Of a stretch of 64,000 bases of DNA, positions 22,501-25,500 are shown piece by piece. Positions within the stretch are counted from its first letter, which is position 1, and each line of letters begins with the position of its first letter. The position numbers were made by a program, and so were the translations under genes. The notes below the pieces were generated by a model. It searched no databases. It worked only from the letters and a program-made list of their open reading frames with translations, and was not told the DNA's origin. Source of the stretch: Chrysomallon squamiferum (taxonomy: Eukaryota > Animalia > Mollusca); the NCBI GenBank assembly GCA_012295275.1, contig CM022665.1:29264001-29328000 (forward strand), written 5' to 3'.

Positions 22501-25500
22501 CTCAACTCTCGTATCAACTCTCGTTTCAACTCTCGCCTCAACCCCTCGTATCCACCCCTCGCCCCTCCCACCCTCGTCTGAACTCTCGTCTCAACCCTCT
22601 TCAACTCTCATGCTCAACCGAGAATCAAAGACAAAACAAAGACACGCGTGTTGGACAAATTTCAAAGCTGTCTTAGTTTTATTAGTCAAAACTAGCTCTA
22701 TCTAGCCTGTAATTAACGTAACTACGAAATTTAAAAATAATAATAATAATAATAAAACAAATAAAAATGCCCTAGGGTTCGACATGACATTTTTTCCAGT
22801 AAGGCATTAATGATGGTCAAACAGAACTTTTAATTATCTGCATATATCGAAATTTTAACACAGTTTATTTTACAGATTACAATCATTAATACATATTTAT
22901 TTACTACCTGTCGTTGTTTTATCTTTTGTTTTATCTCATAAAACTACGCAATCTTTGGCTTTCTCTCGGTCTCTTTGCTTTTTTCTGTAGACACTTTTGT
23001 TCTCTAAATATACTTTCCCCGAAGACAAATAGTAATGTCGACTAACAATGGACAGCCTTTCTCTCAGATACATGAAAAGAACTTAGGGCTCAATAAAAGT
23101 CATTATAAGAGACTGATGTTCATGCACTGATTGTGTTCTATCACTTTCTAAACGTCAAGAATTGTATTACATTCACACGAAATATCTATTCTCAGCACGA
23201 CACTAAAAAATACTTTTTGTGTTTGTCTTTATAACAAAGCAAATCTCATATTGATTATACTAGTAAAGCGAATACTGTCCTCCATTGTCAGTAAACTAGA
23301 ACCACAGTTGGTAGAAAAACCTTAATGACGTACTTTCTTTGAATTTATTATTGATATATCTTAATAACCTGTTTTAAATGTTTATAATCTAAAATAATTC
23401 ATTGTTTAATGTGTCAAATCATCACAATCAACAGTCTGTTTCTTATGTTTATTCAATTGGAGATGACAACTTGTCTTGTCCTTCACCTGTCAGACTTCAA
23501 ATAAAGTCAAGAGAATGAGTTATGCCGAGGCATTGACAGAATAAAAAGTGTCAAAGGGTTTGGAAGCGGATGCAGTCAAAGAAAACGCTGAGGTGCAGAC
23601 TTGAAAGATATTACATACATACATGACTAATTAGTATTAAAACAATATAAAAATACATCATGAATATGGTTTACTATTTCCCAGCACTACTATTATTTCC
23701 TGTTCCACTATTATTAGCCTAATATATCCAGTACTACTATTATTACTGACCATACCATTTCCAACCTACTGTACCAACACTACTATTTCCAATTACTGCT
23801 ATTATTATTATTATTAGCCATACTATTTCATACTACTATTATTGTTTATCTAACTTATCTTGATGTTCCCCTTAATTTACCTTTTTTAATTACCTGATGA
23901 CCGACATCACCTGGAACGAGAAAGGAAAGGGGTAAAATTATCCGAGCGGGAGACAGGATTTGAACTCAAAGCAGCGAGAGCGTAGCTAGCGTGAACAGCT
24001 TTTTTTTATCTTTATTAGTATAATCACCAGTTGTACACAATTAAAATAACATTACAGCTGTAAATAACAATAACAAAAACTATTTCCTCTCACACACTCA
24101 GTCACACTCATTCACACTCACATGCATGCATACTTATTTATTCGGAATATTCATATATATTTACAGTATTTTATAGTATTAATTCTTTTATCCATTTCCA
24201 TGGTTTATCTATATTGATTATTTGTAGTTTTCCAAAGGATATTTGAAAATAAGTATGTCATCTTTTAGTTCTAGGAAAATATTGTTCTTAACATATTTGT
24301 TAATAAAAATTGAAAGTTTGTTTTGAATACGATATTGATTTAGAATGATTTTAAAGCACTGATACATATAATTTCTAAAAAAATGTATTATATTGATATT
24401 TGTTCCTTTCATTTGAGCTATTACACGCCTTTTGAACACTGTTATTCTATAAATTGAAAGAATAATATTAATAAATTCTATTGTACTATTTTCAATTTTG
24501 AGATAACATCCAAATATTAATAATCTTTTTAATTGTTCTAGAGAAAACCCTGTTTTCTTAAATATATAAATACATATTTCATGAAAGATTGATATTAATT
24601 CCTTCAATTCTTCACAATACAAAAATAAATGGCACAAATCTTCATCATCCTTCAAACACACTGGACATACACTAGATGAGATTTTGCCATATTTATATAA
24701 TTTGTTATATGTATATATTATATGATGAACTATTCTAAAATCTAAATCTATAAATTCAGTAAATTTATCACTATAGTGTATCCATTTCCAAACTGGTCTC
24801 CAGAATATATTAAAACCAAGCTCATTCCATTTTTCTTCACAAGTTGGTGCTTTAAAGTTTTTTAAAATTAAAATAGAATAAATTATTTTAGCTGTAAATT
24901 TATTGACATTTATCATTTCATTATTCTGAAACAAAAATAAATCTTTATTAGAAGTTAATTTTTTAGCATTTCTGTTAATAGAACTTTTCCATTCATCTGG
25001 AAGTGATTTCTTAATAACATTGTAAGCTATATAAATTTGGTTTTTGGATAATTCTGGAGATTTTTCATGAATAAGTTCTACAATAGCTGTAAAAGGAAGA
25101 AAACCTGGTATTATTTCATATTAGAAGCAATATCAGCCACTTTGACTATTCCACTTTTTATAAAAAGAACTAAATAATAATAATTTGTTTTTATATTTAA
25201 TGAATGGATTTTGAAAAAGTGGCTGAGACAATATTTCATCTGTATCAAGTGGGAAATTACGTTCTCCATTATTAACATAGTCCCAAGCTGATAATATTTC
25301 AGCATAAAAAGGATTAATAACTTTTAAAGCTTCTTTACTGTATACTATTTTAAAAATGTCATAATTTAGATTCATATTCATATATTTTTCAAGAAATATT
25401 GACATTGTATATTTCCACACATTTTAAAATTATTATCAAAATATTTCTTTAACATTTTTATTCGAAAAGCCATTTTCTTTAATGAAATATCTTGAATATT

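Follow-up and report, generated by a model that had tools for sequence, protein, structure and literature searches.

A Tx1-type LINE of Chrysomallon squamiferum and its relatives: junctions at the D-loop/A-box end of tRNA genes and at a tRNA-like site of U6atac

Site-specific LINEs are usually confined to one gene type, and a CCHC zinc knuckle in ORF1 is a feature of the Tx1 clade. Targets described for Tx1 elements comprise U2, 5S and U5 genes, microsatellites, transposons and the spacer of tRNA-Leu arrays; target-specific families are Keno (U2 snRNA), Mutsu (5S rRNA), Dewa (tRNA-Leu array spacer), Tx1L (Tx1D) and Kibi/Koshi (PMC4494074, PMC3706591). A family is regarded as target-specific when more than 20% of its flanks are of one type (PMC4494074). 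The snRNA targets in the consulted part of PMC4640811 are U2, U1 and U6, U6atac being absent from that list.

Insertion into or beside tRNA genes is known from other groups. Dada DNA transposons insert inside tRNA genes, often at the A box, with sites at nt 8-13 or near the anticodon, and related families hit snRNA genes via similar sequence (PMC3706591, PMC8869645). Among LINEs with a restriction-like endonuclease, NeSL-1_TV, LIN15_SM and LIN25_SM have tRNA-Pro, tRNA-Arg and tRNA-Glu targets, respectively (PMC4640811). TRE5-A of Dictyostelium, a LINE associated with tRNA genes, is steered by host proteins to a position some way beside the gene rather than to a particular base inside it (PMC3706591).

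The window analysed here is a stretch of 64,000 nt of the C. squamiferum genome (GCA_012295275.1, contig CM022665.1, forward-strand positions 29,264,001 to 29,328,000). It contains an intact U6atac snRNA gene together with two LINE copies, A and B, whose 3' junctions are called junction A and junction B. A slash within a motif marks the point of junction. The features are as follows.

13761-13995, minus strand: second copy of a duplication, 235 nt, following the copy A poly(A); 3' part of U6atac without promoter (13994-13902) plus flank
13996-18756, minus strand: LINE copy A, 5' end lost in a gap, delimited by comparison with copy B
18757-18956, no strand: assembly gap of 200 N truncating copy A, seen in the sequence
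22760-23999, minus strand: multicopy repeat of at least 1.2 kb according to contig depth, its B-box-bearing head joined to the LINE
23956-23967, minus strand: B box GAGTTCAAATCC, starting 32 nt past junction B, with 11 nt matching the tRNA-Gln B box exactly
24000-24007, minus strand: poly(A) of copy B, 8 A, junction at 24000/23999
24000-29367, minus strand: LINE copy B, full length 5368 nt, with ~85 nt 5' UTR, ORF1, ORF2, 3' UTR and poly(A)
24221-27396, minus strand: rest of copy B ORF2, reverse transcriptase (Pfam RVT_1) and C-terminal part, in several frames from 1-5 nt indels
27375-28109, minus strand: APE endonuclease domain of copy B ORF2, catalytic motifs present (Pfam PF03372; alignment)
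28125-29282, minus strand: ORF1 of copy B, 386 aa, CCHC zinc knuckle (Pfam zf-CCHC, E 1e-7)
29368-29601, minus strand: first copy of the duplication, 234 nt, abutting the 5' end of copy B, 99.6% identical to 13761-13995
29508-29626, minus strand: intact U6atac snRNA gene, the insertion target, upstream copy (Rfam RF00619, 92.5 bits, full model)
29650-29657, minus strand: TATA-like box, 24-31 nt upstream of U6atac, seen in the sequence

Both copies are, by their features, probably a Tx1-type LINE. Copy B possesses ORF1, an ORF2 with N-terminal APE and reverse transcriptase domains, and a 3' poly(A), the composition of APE-type non-LTR retrotransposons of the L1 group, and the Pfam match in its ORF1 is the zinc knuckle of the Tx1 clade. 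Among named proteins, those of Mytilus and Patella come closest (46-48%). Several of the indels that interrupt ORF2 of copy B are missing in contigs of other individuals.

The poly(A) of copy A, 17 A in length, joins the 3' part of U6atac at 13994, and the cut in the gene falls after nt 26. The duplication extends from this insertion point to the 5' end of copy B and takes in the remainder of U6atac together with ~140 nt of its 3' flank; its two copies differ by one T-run indel. Given this 234/235-nt repeat, the 5' end of B and the 3' end of A are the two boundaries of a single insertion whose target-site duplication is very long, and the two ends of B do not come from one insertion site. Since B 5' end and A 3' end are paired in this way, junction B has no partner in the window: the sequence once upstream of it is absent, and the 5' end of B abuts the U6atac flank instead. 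As a result of the duplication, U6atac is complete after the insertion and retains the TATA-like box, which by its sequence and position is a putative U6-type upstream promoter. Exons of host genes flank the locus at 753-3183 (minus strand), 7021-11839 (plus strand) and 32000-42237 (minus strand); they belong to a zinc-finger membrane protein, presumably resembling ZFPL1, a lysine-rich protein and a leucine-rich-repeat/EF-hand-like protein.

This layout of A and B is probably a misassembly, in which one element resides in U6atac while copy B's 3' end and the 5 kb that follow derive from another locus and were joined at a contig end. Alternatively, it is a genuine composite that arose by recombination between copies. 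Over 4729 aligned bases, 33 substitutions and 55 gap columns separate the copies, and the location of many indels in homopolymers would fit a noisy long-read assembly. They are very close kin either way, since at 13 of 15 checked places A and B share a base at which contigs of other individuals often or always differ.

Contigs of four runs were mapped on 22760-29560; run X9 (share 0.05) was uninformative. Contig depth, which does not equal copy number, was 13.8, 86.8 and 42.8 in the other three runs at 29468 (U6atac flank), 519, 3040 and 2583 at 25120 (LINE), and 254, 1071 and 1548 at 23934 (the flank of junction B, termed flank B), the last being 12-36 times that at 29468. The U6atac flank thus looks single-copy, and given this depth the insertion may be absent from the individuals of those three runs.

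Long target-site duplications are a rare outcome, on record for R9 (126 bp, PMC6895275) and, sporadically, for ZfL2-2 (PMC2666801). The U6atac duplication likewise far exceeds the 10-20 bp usual for APE LINEs; unlike these examples, it reaches 234 bp and restores a whole low-copy gene. Within the clade described below it is apparently sporadic, as the relatives L081 and L001 differ in this respect.

Relatives of the element were collected from 80 of 538 confirmed metagenome loci and from 51 loci in host-contaminated microbial genomes. The loci stem from host contamination of microbial assemblies, a biased sample; no relative was found among 64 pattern matches in viral contigs. Contigs of animal hosts that bear LINEs and arrays of tRNA and snRNA genes occur in several bacterial MAGs (G001:C35, G004 and other GTDB genomes). 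A midpoint-rooted FastTree phylogeny was constructed from the reverse transcriptase region of 125 sequences, leaving out L115-L131, loci that do not cover the RT core, and duplicates. The window element forms a group with L081, L082 and L084 (support 1.0), which L001 and the Mytilus and Patella proteins join at the next level (0.984). In this tree, which comprises no named Tx1 references, the clade nests among loci with poly(A) joined to U2 at TCTGTTCTT. This is the quoted motif of a U2 target site that Keno and Utopia have in common (PMC4640811), and the nesting speaks indirectly for Tx1 affinity. U1- and U2-inserted loci themselves fall outside the clade.

Other loci were noted in addition. 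In contigs of G004 (L083, L086, L088, L089, L091), mixed U1/U2/5S arrays harbour several distinct Tx1-like elements; those of L083 and L091 are joined to the Keno-type site of U2, and L088 and L089 join sequence that by eye resembles a U1 variant. At L002:6062 the poly(A) of a Tx1-like LINE joins a U1 snRNA gene, U1 not being found as a Tx1 target in the consulted parts of the literature on Tx1 targets, and at L008:5731 a poly(A) joins sequence resembling 5S rRNA, again by eye. L104 (2854-3110 and 8898-9154), a Tx1-like LINE that is GC-rich and distantly related, has its poly(A) junction 5 nt before the start of a tRNA-Gln gene; a duplication of 257 nt (96.5%) copies this whole gene, which makes it a second tRNA-associated target on another branch.

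Among the relatives whose 3' end is available, L081 is the closest, at 73% DNA identity to copy B. It is inserted in an array in which 35 tRNA-Asp genes recur every ~498 bp. The poly(A) of L081 is followed by nt 22 of tRNA-Asp (A21/G22), where intact neighbours read GGTGA/GTAT; a junction at exactly this base has a chance of ~1/498. Rfam matches the tRNA at this junction from model position 21 (E 0.057). On the 5' side, L081 follows nt 10 of a tRNA-Asp gene copy, which amounts to a loss of 11 nt. The poly(A) of L001 joins an intron-bearing tRNA with anticodon GTA (tRNA-Tyr), known from 3' of the junction only, and Rfam again matches from model position 21 (E 0.0029), so that both junctions fall on the same position of the model. 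The 5' side of L001 stops in a tRNA-Lys copy, 17 nt beyond GGTA/GAGC. One family thus appears to use several tRNA types, and L001 would be a two-target chimera like copy B, with its exact 5' end deduced. L161 is 99% identical to L001 over 1059 nt; its poly(A) joins an AT-rich non-tRNA sequence starting with CC, an off-target insertion. C-terminal searches of 19 host-contaminated genomes added this one clade junction and no other. L082 and L084 stop short of the poly(A).

Altogether, five 3' junctions are available for the clade, two of them from the window's own family: two at A21/G22 of tRNA genes, one in U6atac, one at flank B and one off-target (L161). Proven tRNA thus accounts for 2/5 and Pol III-type sequence for 4/5. 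The relatives support the idea of targeting better than the window does.

U6atac nt 22-32 are identical to nt 17-27 of a tRNA-Gln gene (11 nt) in the same register, which makes junction A the equivalent of A21/G22. The earlier note had proposed a shared GGTTA/GC target at the end of the A box. Placement at the A-box/D-loop end agrees with the tRNA-Asp and tRNA-Tyr junctions, both at the same base; GC after the cut does not hold, the junctions reading GT in tRNA-Asp and GA in tRNA-Tyr. As judged from the aligned sites, the common target would be GGT(N)A/G, located where the D-loop/A box ends, instead of "/GC". The earlier note's further suggestion, that the lineage targets tRNA A boxes and hit U6atac by mimicry, gains support from the two tRNA junctions and the 11-nt match to tRNA-Gln. 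We also agree that the U6atac site is not the TTTT/AA consensus of generic L1 endonucleases; the template strand there keeps a T/AA step. Two further GGTTAGC 7-mers in the window are unoccupied.

We consider it likely, with a probability of about 0.62, that the endonuclease of this lineage recognises GGT(N)A/G at the end of the D-loop/A box, nicks the template strand, starts reverse transcription on the poly(A) and makes a loose second cut. ORF2p would nick the template strand opposite A21/G22, and reverse transcription would be primed there on the poly(A), with A21 giving a one-base overlap with the poly(A) tail. In tRNA genes, members of the clade lie between A21 and G22 and in the sense direction. 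The second-strand cut would be loose: 11 nt are missing in L081, and the junction lies 17 nt downstream in L001 and 234 nt downstream in U6atac. Its position at the A-box end makes the motif common to many tRNA types; U6atac was likely hit owing to its 11-nt mimic of the tRNA-Gln D-loop, and survival of the hit was likely due to the long duplication, through which one complete gene persisted together with its upstream promoter. The target preference is strong, not absolute.

In alignment, the endonuclease of copy B has a beta-hairpin loop of 11 residues, the extended length of Tx1L. Its best PDB match is 2v0r (85.5 bits, compared with 76.2 bits for L1-EN), that is, human L1 endonuclease with the Tx1L hairpin loop (PMC1950540); the gain in score over plain L1-EN is due to the loop of equal length. 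The 11-residue loop is present in 18/18 aligned endonucleases of the clade and is shorter in U1-, U2- and U5-associated loci. The Tx1L loop changes the nicking preference, and for L1-EN it has been argued that shape and flexibility of the loop weigh more than base contacts (PMC1950540). By analogy, this argument would speak against direct base read-out of the motif. The clade-wide long loop with a tRNA site and the short loops with U1/U2 sites form a natural pair for tests of APE specificity.

In several respects the element is similar to target-specific Tx1 LINEs. It combines APE and RT with a zinc-knuckle ORF1 and poly(A), and its 3' junction is fixed in a multicopy small-RNA gene while the 5' junction is looser. 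The tree places it amid loci that occupy the Keno site of U2; 0/5 clade junctions are in U2 and the U2-inserted loci are on other branches. Dewa occupies the spacer of tRNA-Leu arrays, whereas the clade junctions lie inside coding sequence, a comparison by target site and not by sequence kinship. Unlike the Tx1 families named above, the element has its target inside the tRNA coding sequence, at A21/G22, and across isotypes (Asp, Tyr, probably Lys).

Dada transposons share with it the insertion into tRNA genes and the hit of an snRNA gene through sequence likeness; they differ, as far as the consulted descriptions go, by a DDE transposase, duplications of 6-7 bp, a single gene type for each family and a site other than nt 21/22. 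NeSL-1_TV, LIN15_SM and LIN25_SM are likewise non-LTR elements specific for tRNA genes, set apart by their restriction-like endonuclease and a single tRNA type each. In the literature consulted we found no Tx1 element with a target at nt 21/22 of tRNA genes or within U6atac, though one may be recorded in Repbase, the founding 2004 paper or supplements. We regard the element as a site-preferring Tx1 LINE with a new target, an assignment based on five junctions, one of which is a counter-example.

A rival explanation is that host factors (TFIIIB/TFIIIC) guide the element to Pol III genes, the cut is made at a fixed distance from the transcription start, and the motif is a by-product. This would account for the four of five junctions in Pol III-type sequence. 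The cut after nt 26 of U6atac would also correspond to about the same distance as the first 21 nt of a tRNA preceded by a leader a few nt long, and host-protein-guided targeting has been described for TRE5-A (PMC3706591). However, guided elements land at a distance near their target and not at a fixed inner base (PMC3706591), while three genes here are cut at one structural base, and U6atac, with its upstream TATA-type promoter, was yet hit exactly at the D-loop mimic. We consider such guidance unlikely and recognition of the motif by the endonuclease the better reading.

Junction B calls for separate treatment. On the minus strand, copy B ends with AATAAAGAT and 8 A (24007-24000), followed from 23999 by GCTGTTCAC. 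That this poly(A) joins GC, with a B box 32 nt later and no A box in between, had been reported in the earlier note and is confirmed in the sequence. Nevertheless, the "A" of A/GC belongs to the poly(A) and carries no information, and GC alone has P ~0.03, post hoc. The B box is not there by chance. The generally known strict B-box consensus used in our scans occurs once in the window on both strands (127.6 kb of strand sequence), namely behind junction B, and a looser consensus four times; the probability of a B box in the 9-nt register window is 7e-5 to 3e-4. Among 72 poly(A) runs of at least 8 in the window, that of copy B is the one followed by a B box at 25-55 nt.

Flank B has the B box of a type-2 Pol III unit or tRNA-derived head, but lacks the 3' two-thirds of a cloverleaf from nt 22 that a cut tRNA gene would have, and it folds into no cloverleaf half. 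Rfam, searched from the junction and including truncated mode, gave no tRNA match, whereas the L001 and L081 control junctions were matched; ARAGORN detected no tRNA either. Its TTC lies 35 nt from the junction, compared with 31-32 nt from A21 in 19/19 tRNA sequences, the B box thus being 3-4 nt farther away than in tRNAs. Local similarity to tRNA-Gln (p 0.02-0.03) derives mostly from the identical 11-nt B box. Vault RNA and other Rfam families were considered as well and gave no match with E up to 10, a weak test for a unit without its 5' part.

Further copies of flank B were sought. The window contains no second copy, an exact 26-mer had 0 matches in metagenome contigs, four host-contaminated genomes gave low-complexity matches only, and among the 24 loose contig ends listed, of 1118, none lies at the poly(A) junctions. 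Contig joints 24481>29376 and 24887>29382 have an AT-rich side of 21 nt and were judged to be chance. A GC-rich 12-bp tandem array of ~34 copies at 22214-22618 adjoins the multicopy flank and may belong to the repeat unit.

Flank B is probably a B-box-bearing, tRNA-derived head, and junction B probably marks an insertion elsewhere in the genome, in such a head belonging to a multicopy repeat; misassembly or recombination would then have linked it with the U6atac copy. The lineage might instead prefer tRNA D-loops with junction B unrelated: flank B would be no cut Pol III unit, GC and the B-box-like 11-mer being incidental, or the cut would lie elsewhere in a SINE-like head. The lack of an Rfam tRNA match, the B-box register shifted by 3-4 nt and the off-target insertion of L161 are in line with this. 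Yet the only strict B box in the window sits exactly there, and the flank is multicopy, like the target array of L081, which makes an unrelated junction improbable. That targeting is not real, with a weak preference and chance hits in tRNA genes and U6atac enriched since arrays with inserts assemble into binned contigs, is very improbable despite the small, biased sample and L161, because such a bias could favour arrays but not one base, and two independent relatives agree in register with the U6atac mimic.

If recognition of GGT(N)A/G is true, one structural base common to many tRNA types is cut, and U6atac is cut by way of its 11-nt mimic, so that targets could shift between RNA gene classes by look-alike. 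The lineage would then parallel Dada DNA transposons at the other end of the A box, and U6atac would join the list of snRNA targets. More broadly, and tentatively, there may be a widespread mollusc-associated Tx1 lineage whose APE reads the D-loop/A-box end in general. The tRNA gene set, tRNA-derived repeats and the U6atac mimic would for it constitute one target class, and long duplications would allow entry into essential low-copy genes, rebuilt intact upstream of the insert.
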